Source of the DNA: an uncultured Clostridia bacterium
Lineage (GTDB): Bacteria > Bacillota > Clostridia > Oscillospirales > CAG-382
NCBI GenBank assembly: GCA_944375955.1
Contig: CALWBE010000062.1
Span: forward strand, 1,314-65,313
Direction of reading: 5' to 3'
Length of the DNA stretch: 64,000 nt
Below the pieces are notes generated by a model. The model was not told the origin of the DNA. It saw nothing but the letters and a program-made list of their open reading frames with translations, and ran no database searches. How positions within the stretch are numbered: position 1 is the first letter of the stretch; each line of letters opens with the position of its first letter. Position numbers and translations under genes: made by a program. Below, in pieces: positions 5,650-33,815 of this stretch.

Positions 5650-5683
5650 TATTTTATAATTCCTTTCAGCATAAATAAAGCAT

Positions 5684-5832
5684 AAAAAAATTCCCCTTGC
5701 ACACAAAAAGGGGAATAAGACAATTTCTCATCTTCCGGAGCAATATTCTCCGCAGGAAGTGGCACCTTGAAAAAATAACAGGTTGCCGGGCTTCATTGGT
5801 CCTGTCCCCTCAGCCGCTCTTGATAAGATATA
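5684..5832 (-). promoter_or_regulatory. SAM-I (S-box) riboswitch with intrinsic terminator expression platform, controlling metK
   Basis: The minus strand reads TCTTATCAAGAGCGGCTGAGGGGACAGGACCAATGAAGCCCGGCAACCTG...AAGGTGCCACTTCCTGCGGAG...CTCCGGAAGATGAGAA, which are S-box conserved cores. This is followed by TTCCCCTT/tttgtgtgc/AAGGGGAA plus T7 (5684-5715), ending 34 nt before the metK ATG. Confidence 0.85.
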
Positions 5833-12989: not shown

Positions 12990-13760
12990 TTAGTCTTTAT
13001 CTATAAATCCCGATAAAAATTCCTGTGTCTTTACATTTTCCGGATTTTCAAAGATTTGCTTGGGAGAACCTGATTCAACTATTCTTCCTTCATGCATGAA
13101 TATAACCTTATCTGAAACTTCCTTTGCAAATTTCATCTCATGTGTAACTATAATCATAGTCATGTTTTCTCTTGCAAGTCCCTTGAGAGTTGCCAAAACT
13201 TCATTTGTAAGCAACGGGTCAAGCGCGCTTGTAGGTTCGTCAAAAAATAATATATCGGGATTTAAGGCAAGCGCCCTTGCTATCGCAACACGCTGCTGCT
13301 GTCCTCCTGACAGCTGAAACGGATAATAGGAAATTTTATCCCCGAGACCTACTCTCTCAAGATAACCGCATGCAATTTCAGATATGTTTCCATTGAATTT
13401 TTTCAAACCGTCCTTGGATAAAAGCTGCATTGCAAGCGTTACATTTTCGAGCGCCGTATATTGGGGAAACAAGTTAAAATTCTGAAAAACAAGGCCAAAA
13501 CGCAGCCGGTTTTTACGGATTTCCTTTTCGGTGAGCTTTTTCTGCGACAAAGCGTCAAAAATAGTTTCTCCTTCTACTTTTATTATTCCGCGCTCAGGAC
13601 GCTCAAGGAAAGTCAGGCAGCGCAAAAGCGTTGTCTTTCCATTTCCAGAAGAACCTATTACCGATACCACCTCTCCCTTTTCCACAGAAAAGCTGATACC
13701 TTTAAGTACGCTGGTATTTCCGAAACTTTTATACATATCTATTACTTCAAGTATAGGCAT
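12990..13760 (-). CDS. Polar amino-acid ABC transporter ATP-binding protein (GlnQ/ArtP-like)
   Basis: 256 aa. [41 protein letters not shown]. Confidence 0.92.
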
Positions 13761-13790
13761 TTTTTTCTCCTTATCGTCTCAGACTCAATA

Positions 13791-14486
13791 TCAGGTCTTA
13801 TAATAATCAAGCTTTTTCTCTATGTATCCAAACAAAAGCGTCAATGCTCCGCAGAATATCAAATAATACACCGCAGTGTAAAATATAGGCCATATGAGAC
13901 CGTCTGATTTTGCAAATTTCTGAGCCGCCCAAATTATTTCATATACCGCGATAACGCGCGCCAACGATGTGTCTTTTACAAGCGTTATTATCTCATTGCT
14001 CATCGGAGGTACGATCTTTTTTATAACCTGCATAAGTATAACCTTGAAAAATACCTGCGTTTTTGTCATTCCCAGCACAGCACCTGCTTCATATTGGCCG
14101 CGCGGCATGCTTTCTATACCTCCTCGGTATATCTCGGAAAAATAGCATGAATAATTGATTACAAATGCTATCATAACAGCAAGAAAACGATCCGGCACAG
14201 TCCAGTCTGCAAGCCAGTCTATGAAAAAATTCTCTATTCCAAGCTTTCCTGCCCACTTTCCCACAAATCCGGGAACATAAAATATTGCTATCAACTGCAG
14301 CATTAGCGGAGTTCCCCTTATAATCCATACAATGGTCTTTACAGTATACTTTAATGGCTTGAATTTGCTCATAGATCCGAAACTCATGATAAGTCCTATG
14401 GGAAGCGCAAAAAGAAGCGTTAAAGCAAATATTTTTACTGTTACGACAAAGCCGTCAAACAGCGATAACGTTACTTCATTAAACAT
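13791..14486 (-). CDS. Polar amino-acid ABC transporter permease (His/Glu/Gln/Arg/opine family)
   Basis: 231 aa with multiple TM helices. EAA-loop-like region YRGGIESMPRGQYEAGAVLGMTKTQVFFKVILMQ. Confidence 0.9.
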   Translation of the reverse strand: MFNEVTLSLFDGFVVTVKIFALTLLFALPIGLIMSFGSMSKFKPLKYTVKTIVWIIRGTPLMLQLIAIFYVPGFVGKWAGKLGIENFFIDWLADWTVPDRFLAVMIAFVINYSCYFSEIYRGGIESMPRGQYEAGAVLGMTKTQVFFKVILMQVIKKIVPPMSNEIITLVKDTSLARVIAVYEIIWAAQKFAKSDGLIWPIFYTAVYYLIFCGALTLLFGYIEKKLDYYKT

Positions 14487-14612
14487 TAACCTAAATTAAC
14501 CTTTCATTACAGGTGACTTTTTTTCTTCAACATTCTATACAGAGAAAAGCAGAAAGCTTTCCTTTAACAAGAAAACCTTCTGCTGTTATTTTTTATGATT
14601 TTCCCTGACCGC

Positions 14613-15467
14613 TTATTCTGCAGGCATTGCAAGCGTAAGCTCATATTTTTCTGCAAGAGCCTTAAGAGTTCCGTCGCTTGCAAACTGATTTATTATCTCA
14701 TTTACCTTAGCTGTAACATCAGAATCTTTGCGGAAACCTATTCCGTAAAACTCTTCAGTAAGTCTTATTGTATAACCGAGATCTTCATAGCTTGTTCCTT
14801 CTCCGGTCATAGCGTCTGCCATTGTTATATCGATAACGCATGCATCACATGATCCGGAAGCAACTTCCATTAAAGCATCTGCCTGTGTCTGAACCGCTGT
14901 AGATTCATATCCCAAATCATTTAACGCCGCTTCTCCGGCAGATCCCGATTCAACTGCAAAAGTAAGACCGTCAAGATCCTCTGCTGTCTCATAATCGGCA
15001 AGCTTATCGGCATCCATAACAACTACCTGTGCGTTTACGACATACGGATCAGTACAGTTCATTCCGTTTAAAACTTCATCTGTAAGTGTCATTCCATTCC
15101 ATACACAGTCGATCGCCTTCGATTCAAGCTCCATCAATTTTCCGTCCCAGTCGATTTCAATGAACTCCGCTTCAACTCCAAGCTCTTTTGCAACAGCTAC
15201 CGCAAGCTCGGTATCAAAGCCTGTCCATTCTCCGTTTTCCATATAGTTCATAGGCTCATACTCTGTTATTCCTATAACAAGTGTACCTTTATTCTGAATA
15301 TATGCAAGATCGCTTTCAGAGTTATCGGGATTCTCCTGTCCGTCTGTGTTGTCTTGAGTTCCCTGCTGATCTCCGTTTTCAACCGGGTCTTTTTCAGCAC
15401 ATGAAGCGAGAGACACTGCAGTCGCAAGCATAAGTGCCGAAAGAATAACTGCCATAATTTTTTTCAT
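14613..15467 (-). CDS. Amino-acid ABC transporter substrate-binding lipoprotein
   Basis: Start ATG 15467 after GGAGGA gives MKKIMAVILSALMLATAVSLASC, a lipobox. An acidic/polar linker follows (DPVENGDQQGTQDNTDGQENPDNSESD), then a type-3 SBP fold (LVIGITEYEPMNY..., GFDTELA...). The track start 15548 is upstream of the signal peptide. Confidence 0.88.
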   Translation of the reverse strand: MKKIMAVILSALMLATAVSLASCAEKDPVENGDQQGTQDNTDGQENPDNSESDLAYIQNKGTLVIGITEYEPMNYMENGEWTGFDTELAVAVAKELGVEAEFIEIDWDGKLMELESKAIDCVWNGMTLTDEVLNGMNCTDPYVVNAQVVVMDADKLADYETAEDLDGLTFAVESGSAGEAALNDLGYESTAVQTQADALMEVASGSCDACVIDITMADAMTGEGTSYEDLGYTIRLTEEFYGIGFRKDSDVTAKVNEIINQFASDGTLKALAEKYELTLAMPAE

Positions 15468-15613
15468 GATAGCATCCTCCGTAAATATTTTTAATCTGCC
15501 ATTGCAAAATGCGAGATGTTCTAATGCACAATATATTTCATTTTCCATTATTTTTTAGAAAAATCTTATTTATGCTTTATCACTTTAGAACACTAAAGCA
15601 GATTTACAATACT

Positions 15614-15641
15614 ATTATAACATATTTTCTGAAAATTGCAA
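15614..15641 (-). promoter_or_regulatory. Candidate sigma-A promoter (extended -10) for the amino-acid ABC operon
   Basis: Minus strand TTGCAA (15641-15636), 16 nt spacer, TGtTATAAT (-10 at 15619-15614). Confidence 0.45.
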
Positions 15642-15689: not shown

Positions 15690-15718
15690 TTGCTTAATCC
15701 TCTTAATATGAATATTAT
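15690..15718 (+). promoter_or_regulatory. Candidate sigma-A promoter for the giant glucan-synthase-like gene
   Basis: TTGCTT (15690-15695), 17 nt spacer, TATTAT (15713-15718), 70 nt upstream of ATG 15788. Confidence 0.35.
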
Positions 15719-15787
15719 TTCATTTTGGGAAAACAATAGTATGAGAATTTATTAATAGATACATTAAAACTTGGAAGGAAAAAAGCG

Positions 15788-18700
15788 ATGAACTCTCCCG
15801 ACATTGAAAAAAACAGTTTTTCCGCCGCGCTTGCCTTGTGCGAAAATATAGCTCAGGAAATTTCTCCAGCCAAACATATGTGCCGCGGTTTACGGCTGCG
15901 AGGTATGCTTAAAAAGAGTTTTTCTGACACAAAAAAGATTTTTCTGCGTGCCGAGAACTATTCCGAAACCAGCGCAGCTCTTTCTGACGCTTTTTTATGG
16001 CTTACGGATAATTATTCTTTTATAGAAGAAGAATTCAGATACTGTATCTGTACCCTTAAAAAGAAGAAGGGCACTGCCTCAAAAAATGGTTTGCCTTTTG
16101 TTTATGAGGCTTCCATGCGTCTTTTTTCCATATGTGACGGGGATGTATCCGGAACTCAGATTGACGCTCTTGCCGCAAGCTGTGACAGCACTATTCCATC
16201 AGGAATGGGATATGATGATTTCTGTTCATTTTCTCATTTTTTAAAATGCGCTCTGCTTTCTTATATAGGCGGTATATCTGCAAAATTTTCCGGCTCAGAT
16301 GCCGTTTTTCAGGGTGATGAAAGCGGCGACCGTCTTATATCTGCCATAAAAACTTTAAAATATTTATCAGTGCATAATTTTACCGAAAGTTTTTCACTTT
16401 GCAAGCTTGAAAGAATATTGTCGAACGATCCAGCAGGCGTTTATCCTGTAATGACAGAAAATTCTTCAAGCGAGCTTCGCCGTCTTCTGCACTTTGAGGC
16501 AAAATCTTCGGGAATGTCAGACAGTGCATATGCCGAAAAACTATATGATCTGTCTGTTCACGGGAAAAGCAACGCCGAAAAATATATAGGTTATAACGTA
16601 GGGAAACTGCCTTCGGAAAGAAAATTATATTTTCCTCTTTTATACGGTCTAAGTGCCGCTGTGTCAATTTTGGCATCATATTATGTTAATATATGGCTTT
16701 TTCCGCTTCTATTTTTCCCTTTGCTTGATGCTTTAAAACCGGCACTTGATGCAGTAATATCAATGATATGCAAAAACACCGGTCTTATTCCGGCAATAAA
16801 ATTATCCGAAATTCCGGAAAATGCAAAGACTCTATGTGTAATAACTGCATTATTAAGAGGAGAAGAACACGACGGAGAGCTTTTTACTCGTCTTGAGCGC
16901 ATATACAATGCTAATAGCGGAAAAAACATTAAGTTCGGCTTGCTCTGTGATCTTTGTGACAATGACGGAGCCACAAAAAGTACAGATGAAGCAGTAGCCG
17001 GATATGCACGAGGAAGAATAGATTCTCTTAATGCAAAATACGGAAACGACTTTATTTTCTTTATAAGACCGAGAAGCTATTCAAAAAGCGAGCGCTCGTT
17101 TATGCCGTATGAGCGGAAAAGAGGCGCTGTTATAGAGCTTTCAAAGCTTATAAAAACAGGTGAATCTTCTTTTGATGCAGGAGTAAAAAGTCTTGCGGAT
17201 AATATTAGTTTTATAAAAGAAGTAAAATATGTAATAACACTTGACGCCGACACGAATCTTGGAATAGATATTGCCAGAGATCTTATTGGTAAAATGATAC
17301 ACCCTAAAAATATCCCGGTTATAGATACCAAATCCCACAAAGTTATAAGCGGATACGGTATAATGCAACCAAAAATGTCCACTGATCTTGACGGAGCTCG
17401 CGCGACTCCTTTTTCAAGGCTTATGTGCGGCGGCGGGGGTACCGACATTTACTCAGGTGCATCATTCGATTTGTATCAGTCGCTTTTCGGAGAAGGCATT
17501 TTTTGCGGAAAAGGTATTTTTGATGTTGATGCTTTTTACAATACTATAGTTCTTTCAGAATTTTTTCCCGATGACAAAATACTCAGTCATGATATCCTTG
17601 AAGGCGAGCGTCTGAGAACCGCTCTTTTATGTGACGTCGAGCTTACCGACGGATTCCCTAAAAATGAGCTTTCTTATTTAAAGCGCAAACATAGGTGGAT
17701 ACGTGGAGATATACAAAACTTGATGTTTCTTTCAAAAAAAATTAAAGTCGGAAATAAAAAACGAAAAAACGATCTCTCACTGCTTTCAAAATATAAACTT
17801 TTTGACAATGCAAGACGTGCGGTCACTCCAATTATTTCTCTTGCAATAATAATAGTCTCGTTTTTCTGGCCGCAACCTTATTCCGCAATTTTATTCTTTG
17901 CAGCTTTTTCTCCCTATATCATTCCTTTTGTAATAGATACAATAACTCTCATAACAACTCTTACAGTAAAAAGTGCCGCAAGAAAGTTTTTCTCTAAAGG
18001 TGTTACCGTGGGAATATGGCAAAGCTTTTTGAGAATGCTTTATTTCAGTGCCATGCTCGCAAAAGATGCCTTGATGTCATTAGGTGCATGTCTGACTTCG
18101 GCTTACAGAATGCTTATTTCCAAAAAAAAGCTGCTCGAATGGGTTACTGCGGCTCAGTCTGACAGCGGAAAATCCTCCGCTATGCTTTTTATAAGCAAGC
18201 ATATAGCTTCATCACTGCTCGGAGCTTTTCTGTTCTTCTTTGCACCGGGCGGACTTATTAAATTTACAGGACTTGCATTCTTCATAATGCCGATAGTCGC
18301 TTTTTTCACTTCAAAAGATTTTTCATCTAAAAAATCCATAAGTCCCGAAGATAAAAAGAAGCTGTCTGCATATGCGGCAGATATCTGGAAATTTTTCGAT
18401 GAAAACGTAAATAAGCAAAATCACTTTCTGCCGCCTGATAACATTCAGTTTTCACCTTATGAAAAAACAGCTCACCGCACCTCACCTACAAATATAGGGT
18501 TATACCTATCAAGCTGCCTTGCGGCACGAGATTTCGGATTTATAAATACGGCTGAGCTTTATGAAAAAATAAATGCATCAATAGAAACTGTAGAAAAGCT
18601 GAAAAAATGGAAAGGACATCTCTACAACTGGTATGATACCGAATCTCTGTCGATATTGAATCCGGCATATATATCGTCTGTTGACAGCGGAAATTTTGTA

Positions 18701-21700
18701 GCTTGTCTTATAACTGTGAAAAACGGTTTGGCTGATTATTCAGACGATGAGCCGCGCATGATAGATTTGATAAATCGCATTTCACGTATCGCCTCCGGAA
18801 CCGATTTTACAGTGCTCTACAACAAAAGCAGAAACCTCTTTTCAGTCGGCGCCGTAATATCGCCTGATGGCAGCGCTGAACTTGATACCGGCTGCTATGA
18901 CTTTCTTATGAGCGAAGCGCGAATATTAAGCTATATTGCAGTATCATCGCGTATAGTACCGAAAAGTCACTGGAAAAAGCTCTCCAGACCTCTAATAAGC
19001 TCTGGAGGATATATCGGTCTTTCTTCTTGGTCGGGAACTGCTTTCGAATATTTTATGCCTGATCTTTTTATGCCTATAAGAAAAGGCTCTCTCTTATATG
19101 AGGCTATGCTTTTTGCCTACCGTGCTCAGTCATCACGAAGAGCAGGGTCGGTATGGGGTATTTCGGAAAGCGGTTTTTTTGCCTTCGACTGTGATCTTAA
19201 CTATCAGTACAAGGCTTTCGGAGTGCCTCTTCTCGGTCAAAAAAGCGGTCTTGACGAAGATCTCGTGATTTCCCCATATTCCTCCTTCTTAGCATTATGC
19301 GTATCTGTATCAGGTGTACTAAATAATCTTTATTCATTGTCAAAACTGGGAATATACGGCAAATACGGGTTTTATGAGGCAGTCGATTTTACACGCTCAA
19401 GAGTTAAAAAGGGAAGCGCATGCGTCAAAAGCTATATGTCTCACCATCTGGGTATGAGCATGCTTGCTCTCGCAAATGCTTCTTTAGACGGCATAATAAC
19501 AAAACGTTTTATGCTTGACGGAAAGATGGAATGCGGCAAGGAACTTCTTGAAGAAAAAATCCCCGTTAACGCCGTGATAAAAAAGCTAAGGAAAATAAGT
19601 GCTCCGCATATACAGTTTGAAAAAATGCGTCCTCCGGAAAAAATAACCATTTCCGAGCATTCATTAGTATTGCCTGTGCCTGCGTGCTTATCTGACGGAA
19701 AACTATCCTGTATTATAAGCGACTGCGGTCAAATTATGATATCAAAAAACGGGGTAAACCTTTGCTCTTATTCAGAACCAAGCAAAAAATTTATTGCTGA
19801 CGCCCCCGTGTCACTTTATTGCTATCTTAAACTTGACGGCCGTGTTTACGGAATGACTCCGCTCGCTTATGCAGTTTTATCACGTGGAAAATATTCGTTC
19901 TCATATTCAGAATGCTCAGTCATTCATTCTTTTTCCTGCGAAAAGGGCGACTTCTCTTTATCATATACAATAGATTCAGGAAACCGTTCGCTTCTGCGAA
20001 TAAAACTTTCCGGTATCGCAAAAGCAGAAAAAGCTGATTTCAGATTCGTCTTCTTTCCTTGTCTTTCAGATAAAGATTCATATGGCGCACACCCTGCATT
20101 TTCAGAGCTTTTTATAGAATCGTCATATGACAAATCGGAAAATATAATATTTTATAAAAGACGGCGCAGAATTTCTTCTGAAGAAGAACTTATACTTGCA
20201 GTTGCGCTTTCTGACAAAAACTGCAGCCTCAGTTTTTCTGCAAAGCGCAGTCTTAATATGCCGGGAAGTTTTATAAATGATCCTTTTATGCTATTCGAAG
20301 AAAAGAATGACGGTGACAGCGGTGCATGCATAAATCCGTTATGCAAGATAGGCTCAGCATATGATGGCAGAAAAGGTGCAGAACTTCTGCTTGTTATGAC
20401 GCATTCCGCCGAAAGCGCAAAAGAAGCGATTCTTTCGGCAAGAAAAAGCAGTTTTGAAAACGCAGAAAGAGCTCTATCAGAAACCGCATCACAGTTTGCG
20501 CTCGGAGCCGGAATATCGTCGGTAGGAAATGACGGTGCTGTAAAAGAACTGTTGTCGGATATCATTTACGGAGATGAAAGCACAAACAATAGATGCAGGA
20601 TTTCAGATGTGTTTTTTTCGGATATGACTCCCCATATTTCTATCGACTCATTATGGAAATATGGTATTTCTGGTGATCTTCCGATAATAGCTGTAGATAT
20701 AGGAGAATATTTCTTCCCGTCTCCTATTGAAAAGCGCATACGCGCGTTTAAGCTGCTTACAATGAAGAATGTTAGATGCGATCTTGTTATATTTTACCGT
20801 GAGACCGACAAATATGACCGAAAGCTCGAAAAAAAACTTCGTGAACTTATTTCAAAATGCTCAGCTGAAGGTTATATCAAAAGACGCCGCGGGGGTATTC
20901 ATCTTATAGAAAAAAGCTCTATCGGGAATGATATGATCGCTTTCAGGCTTTTTGCTTCATCATATACCGACATCTATTCGGATATGGCAGCAAAAAAAAT
21001 TCACAGACCGGCAGAAAAAAATTTTTACACCGTTATAGACTCAGGGAAAAATATCTCTTGTCCTACAAATGGTCATAAAGTAAACGGAGGATATTTTTCA
21101 GATGGTAGCTTTATTATCGATAAAAGCGAAAATATTTCGCTTCCGTGGGCTCATGTCTTATCAGGTGAAAATATTTCAAGCGTACTGACTCAGAATTCTC
21201 TCGGCTATACCTTCTATAAAAACGCAGCGGAGAGACGCATAACTCCCTGGGCGGAAAGCGGAAACAATGAGCTTTCCGGCGAAAAACTATTTCTTTATGA
21301 AAACGGCGTCTTATTCGATCTCACACGCTGTTCGGCATTTGTGCGTTATTCCTGCGGAAAAGCAGAATATTTCGGAAGAGTTGCCGAAACAGATTATAAG
21401 ATAACGGTATTTTGTTCATCGCGCCTTCCAGCAAAAATAATAAAAGCTGATTTTAAAGGTAAATTATCCGACACTTCAAAAATTTACTTCTGCGTCGAGC
21501 CGTGTATGGGAAGGCATAAAAGCAAAAACGCAATAAAAGCTATTTCTGATTCTTCAATATTATTTAAAAATCCTTTATCTGAATCCTTCGGAAATTATTT
21601 CGGATTTGTTTCGGTTTTTTCAAGCAAAAAATGCAGCACCGAATGTGACAAAAGTCATTTTTACAGCTCTGAAAAAAACTCATCTTCTTTTCAAACACGC

Positions 21701-23431
21701 GATTTTGCATGTGTCGGCACAGAAGCCGGCGGAAATAATTTCTCTTGTCATTTTATTATCGGAGCAGCAAAGGACGGCTCTAAAATATTTGAAAAAATAA
21801 TCTGTGCAGCGCCTCAGAAAGAATGGTATGAAAAAGAACTGAAAACTGCAGAAAATTTCTGCTTAAATTTGATTCCTAAGATAAAATTTCTTCCGCAACG
21901 AAAAGATGACGCTTCTGAAAGCATTCTTGAAATGTTTAATAATTTCTTACCGTATTCTGCCGTTTTTTCGCGTATGCTCGCACGCTCGGGATTTTATCAG
22001 TCCGGAGGAGCATACGGTTACCGTGACCAGCTTCAGGACTGTCTCTCGCTTGTATATTCCGATCCAAAACGCGCCCTTAATCATCTTTTCCGCGCGGCCG
22101 CACATCAGTTTGCTGCAGGAGATGCGCTACACTGGTGGCATGCGCACAGCTGCCGGGGAGTAAGGACAAAATGTTCAGACGACTATTTATGGCTTCCGTT
22201 TACGGTATCTGAAATATGTTCTGTAACAGGTATGTATTCTATACTTGATACAGAAATACCTTATATTGAGGGAGAAGCGCTTGCTGACGGAGTTTCCGAA
22301 AAATACTTGCCATTTTATGTTTCACATTTGCAGGAAAATTTATATCTTCACTGCATCCGCGCGATTGACCGAGCATGCAGCCTTTTCGGAGAACATGGTT
22401 TATGTCTTATAGGCTCATGCGACTGGTGCGACGGATACAATCTTGTAGGAAAAGACGGAAAAGGCGAAAGCATATGGGTAAGCATGTTTCTTATATGCGT
22501 TATTGAAAAGTTTATTCCGATATGTGAACTTAGAGGAGAATCAGGCAGCGCAGAAAAATACAAAAATATCTCCCAAGCTCTGAAAAAAGCCATAATTGAT
22601 TACGGATATGATGATAAAAACGGATATTTTATACGCGGATATTATGATGACGGAACAATGCTCGGGGCAGAAACCTGTGATGAAGGCAAAATAGACCTGC
22701 TTCCTCAAAGCTTTGCACCTCTTTGCGGCATGCCTGAAGATATTTCAGCAAATGCGATCATGAAAGCAAAAGAAAAACTTTATGAACGGGATCTCGGAAT
22801 AATGAAGCTTCTTGATCCTCCTTTTGATAAAACAGAAAAAGAACCGGGATATATCAAAGGCTATCTTAAAGGAGTGCGTGAAAACGGAGGTCAATATACT
22901 CACGGTGCATTATTCTACGCCCTCGGATGTTTCAAATGTTCGGATATGCTTTATTCGCAGCATCCCGAAACTTCAGAGATGATATCAAGATCCGGCGGAG
23001 ATATTCTAATGTATTCAAATCCGGCGTTTCGCATGTCAGGAACCGTATCTGAAAATATAAGAAAAAGCTATATGGCCGAACCGTATGCAGCGGCGGCAGA
23101 CATTTATTCTAACGCTGATAATCCCGGACGCGGGGGCTGGACTCATTACACCGGAGCTGCAGGCTGGATGTACCAGCTTATTCTTAAATATGTTTTCGGA
23201 CTTGCTTTTTCTGATATATGCACTGATTCACCGAAAATATTCGTAAACACAGCACGTTATTTCCCGCTGCCGGAAATAATTTCAGGAGCATCTGTAAAAA
23301 TATACGATTTCGGATTCGATCTAACTGTAAAATTTATATCTGACGGTAAAAAATGCGTTATTACAGACGGCAGAGCGGCAGAAAATGGAATTATAACAAA
23401 AAATATAAAAAGCGCTGAAATTCATTTTTAG
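15788..23431 (+). CDS. Giant (2,547 aa) multidomain membrane glycosyltransferase with cyclic beta-1,2-glucan synthase (Cgs/ChvB/NdvB)-like architecture
   Basis: N to C: WLTDNYSFIEEE (aa 71-82); a TM pair around aa 283-325; a GT-A module with LD(486)AD(488)T, GYGIMQPKMS, ILSHDILEG and RWIRGDIQN (636-644); about 4 further hydrophobic helices (aa ~670-840); an alpha/alpha6-like block HRTSPTNIGLYLSS, HLYNWYDT, SSVDSGNF, WSGTAFEYFMP, WGISESGFFAFD, YGFYEAVDF; then a GH94-like block GGAYGYRDQLQD (R2079), HWWH, CDWCDGYN, RENGGQYTHGA (~2365), GRGGWTHYTGAAGWMYQ. Confidence 0.8.
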   Translation: MNSPDIEKNSFSAALALCENIAQEISPAKHMCRGLRLRGMLKKSFSDTKKIFLRAENYSETSAALSDAFLWLTDNYSFIEEEFRYCICTLKKKKGTASKNGLPFVYEASMRLFSICDGDVSGTQIDALAASCDSTIPSGMGYDDFCSFSHFLKCALLSYIGGISAKFSGSDAVFQGDESGDRLISAIKTLKYLSVHNFTESFSLCKLERILSNDPAGVYPVMTENSSSELRRLLHFEAKSSGMSDSAYAEKLYDLSVHGKSNAEKYIGYNVGKLPSERKLYFPLLYGLSAAVSILASYYVNIWLFPLLFFPLLDALKPALDAVISMICKNTGLIPAIKLSEIPENAKTLCVITALLRGEEHDGELFTRLERIYNANSGKNIKFGLLCDLCDNDGATKSTDEAVAGYARGRIDSLNAKYGNDFIFFIRPRSYSKSERSFMPYERKRGAVIELSKLIKTGESSFDAGVKSLADNISFIKEVKYVITLDADTNLGIDIARDLIGKMIHPKNIPVIDTKSHKVISGYGIMQPKMSTDLDGARATPFSRLMCGGGGTDIYSGASFDLYQSLFGEGIFCGKGIFDVDAFYNTIVLSEFFPDDKILSHDILEGERLRTALLCDVELTDGFPKNELSYLKRKHRWIRGDIQNLMFLSKKIKVGNKKRKNDLSLLSKYKLFDNARRAVTPIISLAIIIVSFFWPQPYSAILFFAAFSPYIIPFVIDTITLITTLTVKSAARKFFSKGVTVGIWQSFLRMLYFSAMLAKDALMSLGACLTSAYRMLISKKKLLEWVTAAQSDSGKSSAMLFISKHIASSLLGAFLFFFAPGGLIKFTGLAFFIMPIVAFFTSKDFSSKKSISPEDKKKLSAYAADIWKFFDENVNKQNHFLPPDNIQFSPYEKTAHRTSPTNIGLYLSSCLAARDFGFINTAELYEKINASIETVEKLKKWKGHLYNWYDTESLSILNPAYISSVDSGNFVACLITVKNGLADYSDDEPRMIDLINRISRIASGTDFTVLYNKSRNLFSVGAVISPDGSAELDTGCYDFLMSEARILSYIAVSSRIVPKSHWKKLSRPLISSGGYIGLSSWSGTAFEYFMPDLFMPIRKGSLLYEAMLFAYRAQSSRRAGSVWGISESGFFAFDCDLNYQYKAFGVPLLGQKSGLDEDLVISPYSSFLALCVSVSGVLNNLYSLSKLGIYGKYGFYEAVDFTRSRVKKGSACVKSYMSHHLGMSMLALANASLDGIITKRFMLDGKMECGKELLEEKIPVNAVIKKLRKISAPHIQFEKMRPPEKITISEHSLVLPVPACLSDGKLSCIISDCGQIMISKNGVNLCSYSEPSKKFIADAPVSLYCYLKLDGRVYGMTPLAYAVLSRGKYSFSYSECSVIHSFSCEKGDFSLSYTIDSGNRSLLRIKLSGIAKAEKADFRFVFFPCLSDKDSYGAHPAFSELFIESSYDKSENIIFYKRRRRISSEEELILAVALSDKNCSLSFSAKRSLNMPGSFINDPFMLFEEKNDGDSGACINPLCKIGSAYDGRKGAELLLVMTHSAESAKEAILSARKSSFENAERALSETASQFALGAGISSVGNDGAVKELLSDIIYGDESTNNRCRISDVFFSDMTPHISIDSLWKYGISGDLPIIAVDIGEYFFPSPIEKRIRAFKLLTMKNVRCDLVIFYRETDKYDRKLEKKLRELISKCSAEGYIKRRRGGIHLIEKSSIGNDMIAFRLFASSYTDIYSDMAAKKIHRPAEKNFYTVIDSGKNISCPTNGHKVNGGYFSDGSFIIDKSENISLPWAHVLSGENISSVLTQNSLGYTFYKNAAERRITPWAESGNNELSGEKLFLYENGVLFDLTRCSAFVRYSCGKAEYFGRVAETDYKITVFCSSRLPAKIIKADFKGKLSDTSKIYFCVEPCMGRHKSKNAIKAISDSSILFKNPLSESFGNYFGFVSVFSSKKCSTECDKSHFYSSEKNSSSFQTRDFACVGTEAGGNNFSCHFIIGAAKDGSKIFEKIICAAPQKEWYEKELKTAENFCLNLIPKIKFLPQRKDDASESILEMFNNFLPYSAVFSRMLARSGFYQSGGAYGYRDQLQDCLSLVYSDPKRALNHLFRAAAHQFAAGDALHWWHAHSCRGVRTKCSDDYLWLPFTVSEICSVTGMYSILDTEIPYIEGEALADGVSEKYLPFYVSHLQENLYLHCIRAIDRACSLFGEHGLCLIGSCDWCDGYNLVGKDGKGESIWVSMFLICVIEKFIPICELRGESGSAEKYKNISQALKKAIIDYGYDDKNGYFIRGYYDDGTMLGAETCDEGKIDLLPQSFAPLCGMPEDISANAIMKAKEKLYERDLGIMKLLDPPFDKTEKEPGYIKGYLKGVRENGGQYTHGALFYALGCFKCSDMLYSQHPETSEMISRSGGDILMYSNPAFRMSGTVSENIRKSYMAEPYAAAADIYSNADNPGRGGWTHYTGAAGWMYQLILKYVFGLAFSDICTDSPKIFVNTARYFPLPEIISGASVKIYDFGFDLTVKFISDGKKCVITDGRAAENGIITKNIKSAEIHF

Positions 23432-23432
23432 C

Positions 23433-23470
23433 AAAAATCTCCGAGGGAAAATTCTCCTCGGAGATTTTTA
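23433..23470 (+). terminator. Strong bidirectional hairpin terminator shared by the giant gene (+) and folD (-)
   Basis: ATCTCCGAGG (23437-23446) pairs perfectly with CCTCGGAGAT (23456-23465). It is flanked by A5 and T5 and starts 2 nt after the TAG at 23429-23431. Confidence 0.8.
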
Positions 23471-23652
23471 TAAATTATAGTGTTTATTTTCTTAATTAAA
23501 AATTTATTTAATTCTTTTTTTGAATACGATATTCATATATGCGACAAGACACAAACAAAGTATGAACGTTAAGGCTGACAATATCTGCTGTCCGTAAACA
23601 CGAAATCCGAACCAAGAAACAGAATTACAATAAGAACCGCATTAATAATTGA

Positions 23653-24510
23653 TTATTCTCCTTCGGCAAGCAGTTCAGCAGCTTTGAGTGTGTTCTTCAT
23701 AAGCATGGTTATTGTCATAGGACCAACTCCACCGGGCACAGGCGTAATATATGAAGCTTTTTTCTCACATGAAGCAAAGTCGGCGTCTCCACAAAGCTTG
23801 CCTGCAGCGTCGCGGTTCATCCCTACGTCTATTACAACCGCACCGTCTTTTATCATATCCCCTGTTAAAAATCCCGCCTTGCCTACTGCCGCAATCACAA
23901 TATCGGCATTTCTCGTTACGGCACCCACGTCCGGCGTCTTTGAATGACATATAGTTACTGTACTGTTTTTATGGAGCATAAGCATAGCCATAGGCTTGCC
24001 TACTATGTTGCTTCTGCCTATAACAGTGCAGCTTTTTCCGCATGTCTCTATACCATATTCATCAAGAAGCTCGGTAATTCCGGCTGGCGTACACGGTACA
24101 AAATCATAGTCGCCTATCATTATTTTACCTACATTTACAGGGTGAAAAGCATCGACATCCTTCTGCGGAAGTATTGCCGCCTGTATCTTCTTTTCATCTA
24201 TATGCGATGGCACCGGAGACTGAACAAGAATACCATGAACAGCTTTATCTTTATTCAGCTTATCTATAAGCGATAAAAGTTCAGCTTCAGTAGTCTCTGC
24301 AGGCAAGGCATATTCAAATGAATTATATCCTATCTCATCGCATGCTTTTTTCTTATTTCTAACGTATATTTTTGAAGCCGGATCATCTCCTACTATGACT
24401 ACTGCAAGTCCTGGAGCATATCCGTATTTCTTTTTAAATTCAATCGTCTTTTCGGCAAGTCCTCCCCTTATTTTAGCACTCGTAGCTTTTCCGTCAATTA
24501 AAACTGCCAT
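23653..24510 (-). CDS. folD: Bifunctional 5,10-methylene-tetrahydrofolate dehydrogenase / cyclohydrolase
   Basis: 285 aa. GLAVVIVGDDPASKIYVRNKKKAC, HGILVQSPVP, VIGRSNIVGKPMAMLL, TPVPGGVGPMTITMLMKNT. Confidence 0.95.
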   Translation of the reverse strand: MAVLIDGKATSAKIRGGLAEKTIEFKKKYGYAPGLAVVIVGDDPASKIYVRNKKKACDEIGYNSFEYALPAETTEAELLSLIDKLNKDKAVHGILVQSPVPSHIDEKKIQAAILPQKDVDAFHPVNVGKIMIGDYDFVPCTPAGITELLDEYGIETCGKSCTVIGRSNIVGKPMAMLMLHKNSTVTICHSKTPDVGAVTRNADIVIAAVGKAGFLTGDMIKDGAVVIDVGMNRDAAGKLCGDADFASCEKKASYITPVPGGVGPMTITMLMKNTLKAAELLAEGE

Positions 24511-24548
24511 TTTTGTTTCTCCTTATTATTGATTTTAATCAAGAGTTT

Positions 24549-25484
24549 TTATTCTTGTTCATTGCTTTTTCCGCCGTCACTCTCTGGCAAAATTTCACTG
24601 TGCTCAGTAAATTGCTCAGTATATCCGTCGCTTATTTTATTCTTATTCCGAGCATGCTTTCTACCAGCGATAAGTAATACGATACTGACTATTACAAGCG
24701 CAAGCGCAAGCATCTGAGATACCCTGAAATTGCCTAACATAAGGCTGTCACCCCTCATGCCTTCTATAAAAAATCTTCCGAATCCGTACCATGAAAAATA
24801 CATTAAAACTATCTCTCCGTTAAACTTTTTATGTTTAAACCGGAAATGTATAAATATTAAACCTAAGAGATTCCACACGGACTCATATAAGAATGTAGGA
24901 TGTACGGCTATTTCTCCTACACGGCTGTTTTCTATAACCATACGCAAAACAAAATCGTCTTCAAATGAAGGTGTATGTATAACGCCTATAAAAGGAAACT
25001 CTATCATATCAAGAGTACCATATGCTTCGGCATTAAAGAAATTACCCCATCTTCCAAAAATCTGTCCTATCATTACGCCGGGCGCAAAACAGTCAAGTAT
25101 CGCCGGCAAATTTATTTTTTTTACACGTGCAACTATGCAAACCGCGATAAATCCTCCTATTATACCTCCGTAAATCGCAAGTCCGCCTTCCCATATTGCG
25201 ATTATATCATAAAATGAATCGATTTTTCCCGAATCAAAAATTAAATAATACAGCCGCGCGCATATTATCCCTGCAGGAATAGCAAAAATGATACAGTCAA
25301 GCACATCATCAAGATTAATGCCGCTCTGTTTAGCCCGATATGCCGCATATATGACTCCGAGAATCATTCCTAAAGTAATTACAGCCCCGTACCAGCGAAC
25401 TGTAAAAAACGGAGTCGACACAAGCACCGGATCTATTTCAAAAGGGCCTATCGAAAGGCCGGGAAACGAAATAGTACTTGTCAA
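24549..25484 (-). CDS. lgt: Prolipoprotein diacylglyceryl transferase
   Basis: VRWYGAVITLGMILG, GGLAIYGGIIGG, GQIFGRWGNFFNAEAYG, HPTFLYES. The likely start is TTG 25484, 7 nt after AAAGGAGA; the track start is 25520. Polar C-terminal tail. Confidence 0.9.
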   Translation of the reverse strand: MTSTISFPGLSIGPFEIDPVLVSTPFFTVRWYGAVITLGMILGVIYAAYRAKQSGINLDDVLDCIIFAIPAGIICARLYYLIFDSGKIDSFYDIIAIWEGGLAIYGGIIGGFIAVCIVARVKKINLPAILDCFAPGVMIGQIFGRWGNFFNAEAYGTLDMIEFPFIGVIHTPSFEDDFVLRMVIENSRVGEIAVHPTFLYESVWNLLGLIFIHFRFKHKKFNGEIVLMYFSWYGFGRFFIEGMRGDSLMLGNFRVSQMLALALVIVSIVLLIAGRKHARNKNKISDGYTEQFTEHSEILPESDGGKSNEQE

Positions 25485-25557
25485 ATTTCTTTCTCCTTTC
25501 CTATAAACATTGTAAAACAAAAAACTATTTAGTATGAAAACTTATTATCTTTTAAAA

Positions 25558-26460
25558 TCATTTATTGCTTTTCGACACTTCAAAAGTCACTTTATTTCCG
25601 TTGCTTCTGCAAATTATATCACCGTTATAATCAGTTCTATAAACAGTCGCTCCGGAATCCCGCAGTCGGCTTAACGTATTCTCAGACGGATGATCGTAAG
25701 AATTGTCTTTTCCTACCGATATAACGGCATATTTCGGCATTACAGCCCTGAGAAAAGGATATGTCGTAGAACTGTCGCTTCCATGATGACCAACCTTTAA
25801 AACAGTACATGAAATATCATATCCGCCTTCAAGAATTGCAAGTTCGGTTTCCCTTTCAGCATCTCCTGTAAGCAAAAATGATGTATCGCCGTAAATGATC
25901 TTCATTACAATAGAAGTGTTATTCGCGTCGTCCTTTGTATTGCAGGCTATAATATTTACTTCCGCTTCTCCCAACGAAAATCTGTCGCCGGCTGACGGAA
26001 CACTTATTTCCTTTCCCTGCTTTTCTACATTTTTTACGAAATTGCTAAACGCTTTGCTGTCATATTGCGTAACCGGACACAATACCTTTTCTGCAGCAGC
26101 GTAATTAAGGGCTCCCGACAAACCTCCGACATGATCCTCATGAGCATGCGTTGCAACTATGTAATCAAGCTCGGTAACCTCATAATTATCAAGATAAGTA
26201 TATATAAGGTCAGAATCCTCAGAATTTCCTCCGTCTATCAGCATTGTTTCGCCCTTACAGAACACAAGCGCGGCATCTGCCTGTCCCACATCTATAAAGT
26301 GTATCTCAAAATCTTCTGTAAACTCCTTATGTTCTTTTTCTGATTCCTCATTTTTCAGCATTTTTGCCGCCGCAGCCGCAGCGGCAAAAATCAGAACTGC
26401 AAATAAAAATGTCAGAGTTTTTTTAAAACCGGAATGTTCACTGATCTTTCTGTTTCGCAT
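25558..26460 (-). CDS. Membrane-anchored MBL-fold metallohydrolase, ComEC C-terminal (beta-lactamase-like) domain type
   Basis: 300 aa. N-terminal signal anchor TLTFLFAVLIFAAAAAAA. FIDVGQADAAL, metal motif ATHAHEDHVGG, LKVGHHGSDSS. Confidence 0.8.
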   Translation of the reverse strand: MRNRKISEHSGFKKTLTFLFAVLIFAAAAAAAKMLKNEESEKEHKEFTEDFEIHFIDVGQADAALVFCKGETMLIDGGNSEDSDLIYTYLDNYEVTELDYIVATHAHEDHVGGLSGALNYAAAEKVLCPVTQYDSKAFSNFVKNVEKQGKEISVPSAGDRFSLGEAEVNIIACNTKDDANNTSIVMKIIYGDTSFLLTGDAERETELAILEGGYDISCTVLKVGHHGSDSSTTYPFLRAVMPKYAVISVGKDNSYDHPSENTLSRLRDSGATVYRTDYNGDIICRSNGNKVTFEVSKSNK

Positions 26461-26474
26461 CGCTCACCACAAAT

Positions 26475-27752
26475 TCATATAGGAAGTACTTTTGACAATA
26501 CCATACGTTCTTCTATAAAATCTGATCTAAAACGCTTTGTAACATCTTCAAGGCTAACATCAGATATTATTTGCGGATAGTCAAACATATTAAAACCTCT
26601 GAAAATATATGATATAAAATCATTAGCAATATCCTCGGTGCTATTAAATACACGCAGGCAAGAAGCGTAAAGAACCCTCTTAATACGCTCGAAATCCTGC
26701 GGATCAAAGCCTTGGCTCTTATATTTCTTAATTTCAGATAATACTTCTGCATATACAGCATCCGGATCTTTTGAATAACCGCTTATCTCACAAAAGCCAA
26801 AGTTTGTATGCGCCTCATATCCGGATGAAAAAGCCGTATTTATAAGTCCGTTTTCATAAAGTCTCGTATAAAAACCGCTTGCTTTTCCAAAAAGAAGCTC
26901 AAGAATTATCTCATATTCCGCCTGCTTTCTTGCAAGCTCAGATCCTTCGCTCGGTTGATGTGTATCTTTTATCCCTATTGAGAAAAGCGGCATGGAAACA
27001 CTCAGCTTTTGTGATATTTCTCTTTGAAATACAGTATCCGGCTCGTCAGGGAAAATACGCTTAACATCTGCGTGGGCAGCTTCGTTCAAATGTGCGTCGC
27101 ATACCTTTAACACCTCTTCCGGATCTATATTTCCGCATACGCATAATGCCATATTGCGAAGATTATAAAACGTATTATATGCAGTATATAGGATCTCCGG
27201 AGTTATCTTTGCAATGGTTTCAACAGTTCCCGCCGTGTCAATACGTGCCGGATGATTATGATACAAGGCTGTAAGCATGTTAAAATAAAGTCTCCAGCCG
27301 GGATTGTCATCGTACATACGTATTTCCTGTCCTATTATTCCCTGTTCTTTAGCAACTGTTTCATCAGTAAAATACGGGTGAGTTACAAAATCAAGCAGCA
27401 CTCCAAGAGATTCCTTAATATTTTCGGTTGCAGAAAACAAATATACTGTCTTATCGCTTGAAGTATATGCATTTGCACTTGCTCCGTATTCAGCATACTT
27501 TTTAAAGGTATCTATACCGTCTTCATTTTCAAAAAGCTTATGCTCAAGAAAATGCGCGATTCCGTCAGGAAGATTTACTTCTTTTCCTTCCGTTATAAAG
27601 TGGTTGTCTACCGATCCAAAATTAGTCCCGAAAACAGCATATCCCGTTCCGTGATTTTTTGGTATCACAAATATACGAAGACCGCTCTTATGTGTCGTAT
27701 AATAATATTTTTCTTCTATCAGCTTGTTTTCTTTCAGAACAAAACTGCTCAT
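26475..27752 (-). CDS. M16-family zinc peptidase (active-site-bearing subunit)
   Basis: 425 aa. Inverted zincin motif HFLEH within GIAHFLEHKLFENEDG. ATGA overlap with the upstream M16 gene. Confidence 0.85.
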   Translation of the reverse strand: MSSFVLKENKLIEEKYYYTTHKSGLRIFVIPKNHGTGYAVFGTNFGSVDNHFITEGKEVNLPDGIAHFLEHKLFENEDGIDTFKKYAEYGASANAYTSSDKTVYLFSATENIKESLGVLLDFVTHPYFTDETVAKEQGIIGQEIRMYDDNPGWRLYFNMLTALYHNHPARIDTAGTVETIAKITPEILYTAYNTFYNLRNMALCVCGNIDPEEVLKVCDAHLNEAAHADVKRIFPDEPDTVFQREISQKLSVSMPLFSIGIKDTHQPSEGSELARKQAEYEIILELLFGKASGFYTRLYENGLINTAFSSGYEAHTNFGFCEISGYSKDPDAVYAEVLSEIKKYKSQGFDPQDFERIKRVLYASCLRVFNSTEDIANDFISYIFRGFNMFDYPQIISDVSLEDVTKRFRSDFIEERMVLSKVLPI

Positions 27753-29035
27753 TCTTCACCGCCTCCGTCCTTAAGTGTCCCTTTTAAAAAGAATATGGTA
27801 TCAAGTTCTGTATCAGACGCACACTTCGAAATTTCTTCTTTTGTAACGCCTTCTATTTCCTTTATTACTTCCTCAAGTGTTTTTTCGCTTCCGCCTATTA
27901 GTCTAGACAAATACCACAGTGAAAGACTTGCTCCGTCATCATAAAGCTCCCTGTATGAATTTATCAGCGCCTTTTTTGCCGAGTCAAGTTCTTCATCAGA
28001 TATAATTCCGTTTTTAATGTTCTCAAGCTGCGCAAGTATCTCACTTACCGCCCGGTCGCGGTTTTCTGTCTCTATACCGCTTGCAACTGTAAGTATCCCT
28101 TTATGAGCTTCGGGAATTGACCGGCAATAATAGCACAAGCTTAGTTTTTCACGCACGTTTTCAAAAAGCTTACTTGTCGGTGAAACTCCGTACAGCTCAT
28201 TAAACAGCGAATAAGCACTGTAGTCTGAGTCAGAAAGACAATGTCCTGATTTAAATCCCAAAATCAGCTTGCCCTGCGCAACTTCCATTTCTTCAGTAAT
28301 CTCAGAAATTCCGCTGCGTTTCCGCACAAATCTCTCCGTAAATATATCTGCAGGCTTGCCTCTGCAAATGCCTCCTATTAGCTGTTTCGCCCGCGCAACA
28401 ATTTCATCAGTTCGGCATTTACCTGTATAAAAAAGTTCAATTCTGCATTCTGAAAGCAGTTTTTTGTAAAACTCATAAAGATTCTTGCCATTGATTTTTG
28501 CTACATTTTCTACGCTTCCGTTTTCTCCGACAGCAAAATTTTCTCCGCTGCACATGGCTTCATGACATTTTTTCATAGCATATGCGTTCTTATTGTTTAT
28601 CAATGAATTTATGGTATCTATAAGATTTTTCTTCTCTGATTCTACAAATTCTTCCTTAAATCCGCCATTCTCAGTTATAGGATTAAAAATAATTTCATGT
28701 ATGGTTTCAAATACCTCATCCGCAAGATTCTCTCCCGACGGTATCAGCGATCCGCGCAAAAAATCCGCCGTAAAACCTATTATCTGTACTTCTCCTCGTT
28801 TAATCACACGGGAAGAAAAGCCTGTCGCATAAAGATAATCAAATCTTTTTGATATCTCTGCCATGTTAGGAAACTTTGAGCAGCCTCTTTTCAAAACAAG
28901 CGGAAGCAATGCCGCATATGATGCAGTTTCCTCTCTAAGTGGAAGAATCATGTTAAAATCAAAATAATCCGTTTTAAATTTGTCCGTTTCGATTATATTA
29001 AGATAAATACCGTCAGACAACTGTACTCTTATCAT
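27749..29035 (-). CDS. M16-family peptidase homologue lacking HxxEH (probable non-catalytic partner)
   Basis: 428 aa with length and layout like M16. No HxxEH anywhere in the sequence; the expected position reads ASYAALLPLVLKRG. RBS GGAGG. 4-nt overlap with the downstream gene. Confidence 0.8.
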   Translation of the reverse strand: MIRVQLSDGIYLNIIETDKFKTDYFDFNMILPLREETASYAALLPLVLKRGCSKFPNMAEISKRFDYLYATGFSSRVIKRGEVQIIGFTADFLRGSLIPSGENLADEVFETIHEIIFNPITENGGFKEEFVESEKKNLIDTINSLINNKNAYAMKKCHEAMCSGENFAVGENGSVENVAKINGKNLYEFYKKLLSECRIELFYTGKCRTDEIVARAKQLIGGICRGKPADIFTERFVRKRSGISEITEEMEVAQGKLILGFKSGHCLSDSDYSAYSLFNELYGVSPTSKLFENVREKLSLCYYCRSIPEAHKGILTVASGIETENRDRAVSEILAQLENIKNGIISDEELDSAKKALINSYRELYDDGASLSLWYLSRLIGGSEKTLEEVIKEIEGVTKEEISKCASDTELDTIFFLKGTLKDGGGEE

Positions 29036-30487: not shown

Positions 30488-30607
30488 ACATGCATACACT
30501 CCTTAAACTGTAAATGCCAGGCAAATATAAATTTACTCTGTTCATCTAAAACAAGTTATTTAGACAAATACAAATCTATACTGCCTCAATCCAATATATT
30601 CAAAAAA

Positions 30608-33527: not shown

Positions 33528-33815
33528 TCATCCTTCAGGCATATCATTTATATATTCTCTATCTGAAGGATTGCGGTAACCTTGATCGTATGCCTTTTCT
33601 TCCATATACTCTTCCGGATCGGTTTCCTGTTTCTCTTTCAGATATTCACGTCTGTCTACCTCTATGCGTGCAGCATCAACTTCTTCCTCAAGCGCTTCGC
33701 ATTCTGCGCGCAGCTCATTCAGCTCCATTTGCAATTTAAAACAAGCTATTATCAAAAATACCATTATTAAAAGAATTGCGCCGGCTGCGAGTTTACTGAT
33801 CCTTTTGTTTTCCAT
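33528..33815 (-). CDS. Septum formation initiator family protein (DivIC/FtsB-like)
   Basis: 95 aa. An N-terminal TM helix (AAGAILLIMVFLIIACF) is followed by a coiled coil (LQMELNELRAECEALEEEVDAARIE). Syntenic position after yabP-yabQ. The 5' end overlaps yabQ by 49 nt. Confidence 0.6.
   Translation of the reverse strand: MENKRISKLAAGAILLIMVFLIIACFKLQMELNELRAECEALEEEVDAARIEVDRREYLKEKQETDPEEYMEEKAYDQGYRNPSDREYINDMPEG

Follow-up and report, generated by a model that had tools for sequence, protein, structure and literature searches.

A compact homologue of the synthase that makes cyclic beta-1,2-glucans, encoded by an uncultured Clostridia bacterium

The cgs gene and its signals

The subject of this report is a single giant gene, here called cgs, in a 64,000-nt stretch of contig CALWBE010000062.1 from an uncultured Clostridia bacterium; this whole stretch is referred to as the window. 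Cyclic beta-1,2-glucans are periplasmic osmoprotectants and host-interaction factors of Proteobacteria. As the initial annotation of this DNA had claimed, one uninterrupted open reading frame (ORF) lies at 15788..23431 (+), and its 2,547-aa product is a full-length homologue of the synthases Cgs, ChvB and NdvB. The order of its modules (N-terminal domain, transmembrane (TM) pair, GT84 glycosyltransferase, four further TM segments, cyclization domain and GH94 phosphorylase) was recovered by phmmer, profile, Pfam and Foldseek comparisons, and the motifs by which the family had been recognized are all present and correctly numbered (Table 1).

The G+C content of cgs resembles that of its surroundings, and the gene is native in composition. 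It is followed by a hairpin whose two arms (23433-23446 and 23456-23469) are 14 nt long and 100% complementary, with a G+C-rich 10-bp core; it folds with an energy of -22.7 kcal/mol (z = -6.3), which none of 200 shuffled sequences reached. The terminator described earlier, a 10-bp hairpin 2 nt after the stop, is real, but the arms are longer and the structure stronger than noted, and it begins 1 nt past the stop codon. Because A/T runs flank the hairpin on both sides and it lies between convergent genes, it may work bidirectionally.

A promoter belonging to cgs had also been proposed. This part was not supported, since promoter-like sites occur here at chance level and the conserved element faces the other way: when the 240-nt upstream spacer was compared with three syntenic loci, the sole conserved element was the minus-strand site TTGCAA-16-TATAAT, which is oriented to the divergent importer and was rejected as a cgs promoter. 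The hexamer TTGCAA is its own reverse complement, and one such hexamer could be the -35 box for both divergent genes. An Rfam scan of the whole window revealed no RNA element before cgs, its sole match being a SAM riboswitch at 5725-5829. This SAM-I element (-, 77.9 bits) lies directly 5' of metK (4462-5706, -).

Domain architecture and catalytic residues

For assignment of the protein to a family we used phmmer against the PDB, which returned Agrobacterium tumefaciens Cgs (8rf0/8rf9) as the best match (E 7e-282) in three aligned stretches. A profile built from 13 sequences, the query and 12 homologues, aligned with Cgs as one continuous stretch (residues 63-2808, 2,311 bits), and the N-terminal domain is therefore homologous too. 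The N-terminal 'WLTDN...EEE' box is common to both proteins (aewllDNhyvieea in Cgs). Ranking after Cgs was 8WY1, the cyclization domain from Thermoanaerobacter italicus, with E 1e-113 for the whole protein and 5e-114 for the domain alone. Pfam identified the GH94 catalytic domain (PF17167, E 4.6e-78), the supersandwich domain (PF06165, E 5.4e-18) and PF10091.

We considered a GT2 synthase of the cellulose/chitin-synthase type or of the OpgH/MdoH type and rejected both, since no GT2 Pfam family was found in the protein at E <= 0.01 and the NCBIfam OpgH/MdoH models gave faint matches near the RW motif, at 15 bits against cut-offs of 328-419. An AlphaFold2 (AF2) model of aa 855-1290 (pLDDT 85.5, pTM 0.89) was compared with known structures by Foldseek. 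The closest were T. italicus 8wy1 (TMq 0.85) and Cgs 8rf9/8rf0 (TMq 0.88, root-mean-square deviation (rmsd) 1.9-2.2 A), with beta-1,2-glucanases next at ~0.7 (~0.71). Of the findings that could have spoken against the initial annotation, none was made: there is no GT2 score, the cyclization fold is confirmed, the GH94 residues are intact and no orthologue making another polymer was found. The assignment as a Cgs-type synthase is correct, and it is an ordinary one.

Residue equivalences were read from alignments of the query to Cgs and 8wy1, with roles taken from the literature (PMC10901819, PMC10834661), and conservation was counted by aligning the 120 database homologues that scored best. Every catalytic position tested is retained in 117-120 of these sequences, with variation at only two positions (Table 1). 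The GT84 set comprises UDP-binding aspartates, the DxD motif, a catalytic-base aspartate and the RW motif. The primer site is invariant; its Cgs equivalent, Y694, is the tyrosine that bears the covalently bound glucan primer, in an IF1-homology loop (PMC10901819). In the cyclization domain E1127, E1043 and H1219 are conserved in 120 of 120, and the numbering offset was checked by the 86 residues that separate both glutamates in the 8wy1 chain. The GH94 residues E2365 and H2372 sit within ENGGQYTH. Since all tested catalytic residues are retained, the sequence suggests that the enzyme is very probably active. The gene is also under purifying selection: between cgs and its counterpart in a 99.3%-identical strain there are 38 nt differences, of which 33 fall at third codon positions and which cause 5 amino-acid changes.

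Table 1. Features of the cgs region and equivalences of catalytic residues (nt positions refer to the window)
Feature	Position (nt)	Residues (aa)	Strand	Remark
Amino-acid ABC importer, family-3 binding protein	12990-15548		-	Upstream of cgs, divergent
Sigma-70-like site TTGCAA-16-TATAAT (with TG)	15614..15641		-	Faces divergent amino-acid ABC importer; conserved in syntenic loci
Shine-Dalgarno GGAAGG	15773-15778		+	9 nt 5' of cgs ATG, read from sequence
cgs ORF	15788..23431	2,547 aa	+	ATG start, uninterrupted, no internal stop
N-terminal scaffold domain	15788..16624	1-279	+	Homologous to Cgs N-terminal domain (profile from residue 63), shorter
WLTDNYSFIEEE box	15998-16033	71-82	+	In N-terminal domain
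First hydrophobic pair, tight hairpin	16625..16747	~280-320	+	Kyte-Doolittle; aligns with first Cgs TM pair
GT84 glycosyltransferase domain	16775..17737	~330-650	+	Alignment to Cgs
GT84 residues		D388; R443		Cgs D527; R586
GT84 motif LDADT		485-489
GT84 residues (DxD)		D486/D488		Cgs D624/D626
GT84 motif QPKMS		527-531
Primer site, Tyr555 codon	17450..17452	Y555	+	Cgs Y694, covalent glucan-primer tyrosine; 120/120 conserved
GT84 residue		D602		Cgs D739
GT84 motif RWIRGDIQN		636-644
GT84 residues		R636-W637; R639		Cgs R773-W774; R776
Four hydrophobic segments	17816..18313	677-842	+	Complete predicted 6-helix anchor
Cyclization domain, GH189-type (alpha/alpha)6	18365..19582	860-1265	+	8wy1 match, AF2, Foldseek
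Cyclase-block motif HRTSPTNIGLYLSS		896-909
Cyclase-block motif HLYNWYDT		944-951
Cyclase residues		S963/D966		Cgs S1101/D1104
Cyclase-block motif VDSGNF		965-970
Cyclase acid/base		E1043		Cgs E1300; TiCGS E1356
Cyclase-block motif WSGTAFEYFMP		1081-1091
Cyclase-block motif WGISESGFFAFD		1123-1134
Cyclase nucleophile		E1127		TiCGS E1442
Cyclase helper histidine		H1219		TiCGS H1536
Start of C-terminal phosphorylase half	19583..21142	1266-1785	+	Aligns with Cgs GP1 region; stretches 980-1684, 1728-2476
GH94 beta-supersandwich	21143..21670	1786-1961	+	PF06165
GH94 catalytic domain	21914..23215	2043-2476	+	PF17167
GH94 motif YRDQLQD		2078-2084
GH94 residue (R2079-D2080)		D2080		Cgs D2393; 120/120 conserved
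GH94 motif HWWH		2115-2118
GH94 motif CDWCDG		2211-2216
GH94 catalytic acid (D2212-W-C-D2215)		D2215		Cgs D2528; 120/120 conserved
C-terminal motif ENGGQYTHG		2365-2373
C-terminal motif GWTHYTGAAGWMYQ		2450-2463
Intrinsic terminator hairpin	23433..23469		both possible	14-nt perfect arms, flanking A/T runs
MFS transporter remnant	23507..23629		-	Last 41 codons; intact in 99.3%-identical strain
folD	23653-24510		-	Downstream, convergent
folD-lgt-metallo-beta-lactamase-fold-M16-M16 block	23653..29035		-	Inverted relative to related loci
yabQ; mazG/yabN-like; SpoVB-like flippase cluster	33767-34378; 35516-36325; 36327-38000		-	Supports sporulating Firmicute

The protein had been judged a few hundred residues shorter than the proteobacterial enzymes, and it is in fact ~270-285 aa shorter than Agrobacterium Cgs; we were able to map the missing parts. 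Towards the N-terminus there is a ~75-aa gap relative to Cgs (near aa 168) and a shortened stretch before the first TM segment. In the cyclization domain, 77 aa separate VDSGN from SEAR, whereas Cgs has 196 and the 8WY1 chain 229 at this place; the alignment of the query to 8wy1 skips from chain residue 145 to 306, and in a test for the GH189 features (a long alpha5 and extra helices between alpha4 and alpha5) the query was found to be without them. This is a common condition. Among the 120 best homologues the spacing is short in 90 and long in 20. One Paenibacillus has it short too, as have a few metagenome-assembled genomes (MAGs) of Acidobacteriota and Proteobacteria; the compact condition extends to some diderm lineages. 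The cyclase insert is a peripheral, variable feature, and the query is a member of a large compact subgroup (about 2,300-2,700 aa) that is common in gut and rumen Clostridia and dominated by uncultured Clostridia from the guts of humans, ruminants and chickens. A search of contigs representing one genome per species gave at least 599 matching stretches, and most of the best 80 are from Clostridia. Full-length homologues in the retrieved loci also come from cultured bacteria, among them Clostridium methylpentosum DSM 5476 and Paenibacillus species.

Neighbourhood, transport genes and host

The neighbours of cgs are, as noted before, the genes of an amino-acid importer and folD. By geometry the gene is monocistronic in the window, as had been proposed, but this is a local peculiarity: a number of relatives carry two M16 peptidase genes, lgt and often folD (M16-M16-lgt(-folD)) next to cgs on the same strand. 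This order, with cgs directly 5', was found in 15 of the 52 related clostridial loci for which downstream sequence was available (for example L006 17342-21725, L015 16599-21365 and L018 10931-14630); the gaps between cgs and M16 are -29 to +136 nt in twelve of the 15, in two loci the first M16 gene and the cgs stop overlap, and one further locus has cgs-lgt-folD. The arrangement may represent either a functionally linked operon or merely conserved housekeeping synteny. The folD-M16 block is inverted both in the window and in the sister strain (Logan contig ERR11474269_9804; 99.3% DNA identity), and the isolated position of cgs results from a local inversion. A search for inverted repeats flanking the inverted block yielded only short, imperfect pairs at chance level.

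Between cgs and folD the sister strain has an intact 433-aa gene for a transporter of the major facilitator superfamily (MFS; L081 17717-19018, -), and about 1.3 kb is replaced by ~31 bp in the window. Because only the last 41 codons remain here, the window strain has deleted the gene. The MFS protein was rejected as a conserved partner of cgs; no homologue lies beside cgs in the 80 other loci, and the MFS protein encoded beside cgs in Desulfosporosinus is unrelated. The initial annotation had also noted the absence of an adjacent exporter. It is true that no ATP-binding cassette (ABC) exporter is encoded in the 64-kb window, where only two ABC ATPases were detected, both too short for fused exporter subunits and one of them, next to cgs, part of the importer.

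We searched all ORFs of the 80 loci for exporters by phmmer with an ABC ATPase query, followed by NCBIfam. Exporter-type ABC proteins were found near cgs in three of them (L003, L016 and L045); these are generic MsbA-type proteins, and the best chvA score among them is 296 bits against a cut-off of 585. ABC proteins at L023 and L080 were discarded, as NCBIfam assigned them to ABC-F and they fell below the chvA cut-offs. Because the retrieved proteobacterial MAG loci are also without an adjacent ABC exporter in the same test, exporter adjacency is not a reliable criterion, and its lack here is not diagnostic. A different arrangement is found in Thermoanaerobacter kivui and T. siderophilus (L082 16803-20752; L086 14817-18767), where genes for four proteins follow cgs on the same strand: an ABC ATPase, a membrane protein of the ABC2 type, a GldG-like auxiliary protein (PF09822) and a protein with DUF4340. 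This ABC-2 set is a candidate glucan exporter of a monoderm; generic ATPase matches aside, no homologues of it were detected in the window or the 80 loci. Two further long-form loci of Firmicutes connect cgs with sugar metabolism. In one (L084 3515-5962) a gene for an 815-aa sugar-nucleotidyltransferase/phosphoglucomutase fusion lies 39 nt 5' of cgs, and in a member of the Limnochordia (L085 14853-18604) genes for a GH116 glycosidase and a LacI regulator lie 3' of it.

With regard to the host, the view that it is a Firmicute with sporulation genes was borne out. The spore cortex protein gene yabQ scores above its curated cut-off, a SpoVB-like flippase gene is present, and the window also carries lgt, murE, relA and lepA. 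The closest cgs loci share the upstream importer genes and are labelled Eubacteriales or Clostridiales; by sequence and synteny together, the nearest relatives bear the labels Eubacteriales, Oscillospiraceae, Ruminococcaceae or Clostridia. A spore-forming monoderm is the reasonable reading of the host. Elsewhere in the window, a gene for a protein with collagen triple-helix repeats (29534-30499, -; Pfam E 1.3e-39) adjoins one for a GT2-TPR glycosyltransferase (30608-31690, -), a pair that recalls the glycosylated BclA-type exosporium proteins of spore-formers, and rhamnose isomerase and rhamnulokinase genes (56861-59647, -) fit a methylpentose-fermenting lifestyle like that of Clostridium methylpentosum.

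Proposed activity, alternatives and related systems

By analogy with Cgs, we consider it likely that the product of cgs is an active synthase making cyclic beta-1,2-glucan in the way described for that enzyme; substrate, product, ring size and topology are inferred here by homology to the Agrobacterium and Thermoanaerobacter enzymes. Six membrane helices would anchor the protein in the cytoplasmic membrane without forming a channel, with the catalytic domains in the cytoplasm. Using UDP-glucose, the GT84 domain (D388, D486/D488, D602 and R636-W637) would first glucosylate Tyr555 and would then extend a beta-1,2 chain on it processively at the cytoplasmic face. The GH94 domain (catalytic acid D2215) would trim over-long chains by phosphorolysis to glucose-1-phosphate and set the chain length, while the GH189 domain (nucleophile E1127, acid/base E1043, helper H1219) would cut the chain and join its ends by intramolecular transglycosylation, so that a ring of roughly 17-25 glucoses would be released into the cytoplasm. 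Purified Cgs by itself yields cyclic glucan in proteoliposomes, and its TM domain of six helices contains no export channel (PMC10901819); synthesis should therefore need no partner, and the product should appear in the cytoplasm. Because the window encodes no dedicated exporter, the ring would either stay there or leave via a transporter encoded elsewhere, and a cytoplasmic ring could be a solute, a reserve or a spore component.

The topology is predicted from a hydropathy scan, which gave six hydrophobic segments with K/R-rich flanks in a 2 + 4 arrangement (aa ~280-313; 677-842), as the initial annotation had it; 11 K/R fall within aa 640-680, and the pattern agrees with the six-helix anchor of Cgs. 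Several points weigh against this interpretation. A promoter scan of the cgs region identified 24 promoter-like sites where 22.9 were expected from shuffles, that is, no enrichment. No ChvA-type exporter was found in the window, nor one consistently near cgs in the 80 related loci, and a monoderm host has no periplasm for the glucan to fill. Biochemistry of the Firmicute enzymes is confined to the isolated T. italicus cyclization domain (PMC10834661). The compact form adds to these points: ~140 N-terminal residues are missing from the domain that cradles the primer, and the cyclization domain is without the helical insert (~115-160 aa) found in the enzymes of Agrobacterium and Thermoanaerobacter. 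In Cgs this insert is a protruding four-helix motif that serves dimer contacts (PMC10901819), and the helices between alpha4 and alpha5, together with the long alpha5, have been termed conserved in GH189 (PMC12102758). Since both parts are missing, ring size, oligomeric state or efficiency could differ in the compact form.

The same absences raise the possibility that the product is mainly linear beta-1,2-glucan, or rings of odd size, the more so as the extra helices are treated as a hallmark of GH189 (PMC12102758) and the primer glucan touches the N-terminal domain in Cgs (PMC10901819). We regard this as rather unlikely. The statement on the extra helices does not hold generally, since 90 of the 120 closest homologues are without them, and nucleophile, acid/base and histidine are invariant in all 120, including the 90 scored as compact. 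Moreover, Cgs and the barrel of the model can be superposed with an rmsd of 1.9 A, the Cgs insert protrudes outward and serves dimer contacts rather than catalysis, and compact cyclase spacing is found in some diderm lineages too.

It is also conceivable that the protein acts mainly in the breakdown or remodelling of beta-1,2-glucans from other gut bacteria, through its GH94 and GH189 domains and with the glycosyltransferase in a secondary role. GH94 phosphorylases are reversible and usually catabolic (the PDB matches include cellobiose and chitobiose phosphorylases), and the distant Limnochordia relative has its GH116 and LacI genes just downstream. On the other hand, the GT84 residues and primer tyrosine are invariant, the protein is predicted to be membrane-anchored like a synthase, and no sugar importer or glucanase is adjacent, the binding protein of the neighbouring importer being of the family-3, amino-acid type. 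In Cgs itself the phosphorylase active site is dispensable, whereas the glycosyltransferase and cyclization activities are essential (PMC10901819). Together these considerations make a catabolic function improbable.

If the host were a diderm Firmicute (of the Negativicutes or Halanaerobiales type, for example), the enzyme could fill a periplasm and there would be no paradox. The organism is known solely from assemblies and its envelope is deduced from genes, and one review calls T. italicus Gram-negative (PMC11842490). That label does not hold, T. italicus being a Firmicute, and the taxonomic labels of the closest relatives, the presence of yabQ and a SpoVB-like gene in the window, and the absence of outer-membrane or lipopolysaccharide genes among the scanned ORFs leave a diderm host very improbable. 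That cgs is a decaying, functionless relic is scarcely credible, for although an inversion separates it from its usual neighbours and the adjacent gene is deleted, its 7.6-kb ORF is intact and without a stop, all catalytic residues are kept, a good Shine-Dalgarno sequence and terminator are present, and the sister-strain differences are concentrated at third codon positions (33 of 38).

Synthesis of cyclic beta-1,2-glucan thus remains our preferred reading for this protein, which is not, however, as undescribed as had been supposed. The founding domain of GH189 came from the Firmicute T. italicus (PMC10834661), and GT84-GH94-GH189 proteins are listed in CAZyme (carbohydrate-active enzyme) inventories of Firmicutes, for example Acetivibrio clariflavus Clocl_3028 (PMC12037645; also PMC7996765); the hundreds of matching stretches described above point the same way. 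GT84 transcripts have been reported in pig colon metatranscriptomes (PMC8254964). Literature searches on whether and how Gram-positives produce, export or use cyclic beta-1,2-glucan yielded only such inventories and the T. italicus domain work, and no paper on these subjects. Because the review cited above calls T. italicus Gram-negative, it seems that nobody has yet raised the monoderm question. We therefore view cgs as a further member of a known family, from a compact and little-noticed subgroup.

This locus and its hundreds of relatives show that intact synthases are common in monoderm, spore-forming Clostridia of gut and rumen, organisms in which the glucan cannot have a periplasmic role and no exporter is seen to be linked to the gene; if the enzymes are active, a class of microbiome glycans has been overlooked. 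We tentatively suggest, as a possibility that we hold to be less probable than its opposite, that the making of cyclic beta-1,2-glucan by a compact synthase is widespread among spore-forming Clostridia of gut and rumen. They would manage without an exporter of the ChvA type, the glucan either remaining in the cytoplasm, where it could be an osmolyte, a reserve or a constituent of spores, or being set free in another way or on lysis. If so, such Clostridia would be a natural source of gut beta-1,2-glucan that has so far gone unrecognised. Foldseek identified structural relatives of beta-1,2-glucanases encoded by gut Bacteroidota (Parabacteroides distasonis 5Z06; Bacteroides 4QT9, 3EU8 and 4GL3). 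Brucella glucan is known to activate dendritic cells and, given this effect, a clostridial glucan could be an immunologically active product of the microbiome. The compact architecture, with no cyclase insert and a shorter N-terminal domain, is also a minimal form, provided by nature, of a 2,800-aa machine and would be useful for structural work and the engineering of cyclic sugars.

Among known systems, A. tumefaciens Cgs (ChvB) shares its family with Brucella Cgs and Sinorhizobium NdvB. It is collinear with the query (N-terminal domain, two TM helices, GT84, four TM helices, cyclization and phosphorylase domains; 8RF0/8RF9/8RFE, PMC10901819), has ~34% identity to it in the best Foldseek alignments, and shares with it the GT84 residues, primer tyrosine, cyclization residues and catalytic aspartates of the phosphorylase. 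Unlike the query, Cgs carries a ~115-aa four-helix motif in its cyclization domain that forms a back-to-back dimer, and the query differs in having a monoderm spore-former as its likely host and no chvA-type exporter nearby. The T. italicus cyclization domain (TiCGSCy/Tg, 8WY1; PMC10834661), also from a Firmicute, is the best sequence match of the query's middle domain and has the same fold. However, enzymes of the T. italicus type have the long form, at about 2,880 aa, with ~160 extra residues between VDSGN and SEAR, and Thermoanaerobacter has the ABC-2 transporter set 3' of cgs. The beta-1,2-glucanases of GH144, GH162 and newer families of the SGL clan (for example Chitinophaga pinensis 5GZH, Endozoicomonas 8XUJ, Parabacteroides distasonis 5Z06) share the (alpha/alpha)6 fold (TM ~0.7) and, like the query, are without the GH189 helical insert; they are stand-alone, inverting hydrolases with 12-21% identity to the query, whereas the latter keeps the GH189 nucleophile and histidine and has the domain embedded in a synthase. 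Finally, the cellobiose and chitobiose phosphorylases of GH94 have the supersandwich and catalytic domains and the catalytic Asp in common with the C-terminal ~800 aa of the query, but these are soluble, catabolic enzymes of about 800 aa, while the GH94 module of the query forms part of a synthase fusion and, if Cgs is a guide, would serve as a chain-length ruler.

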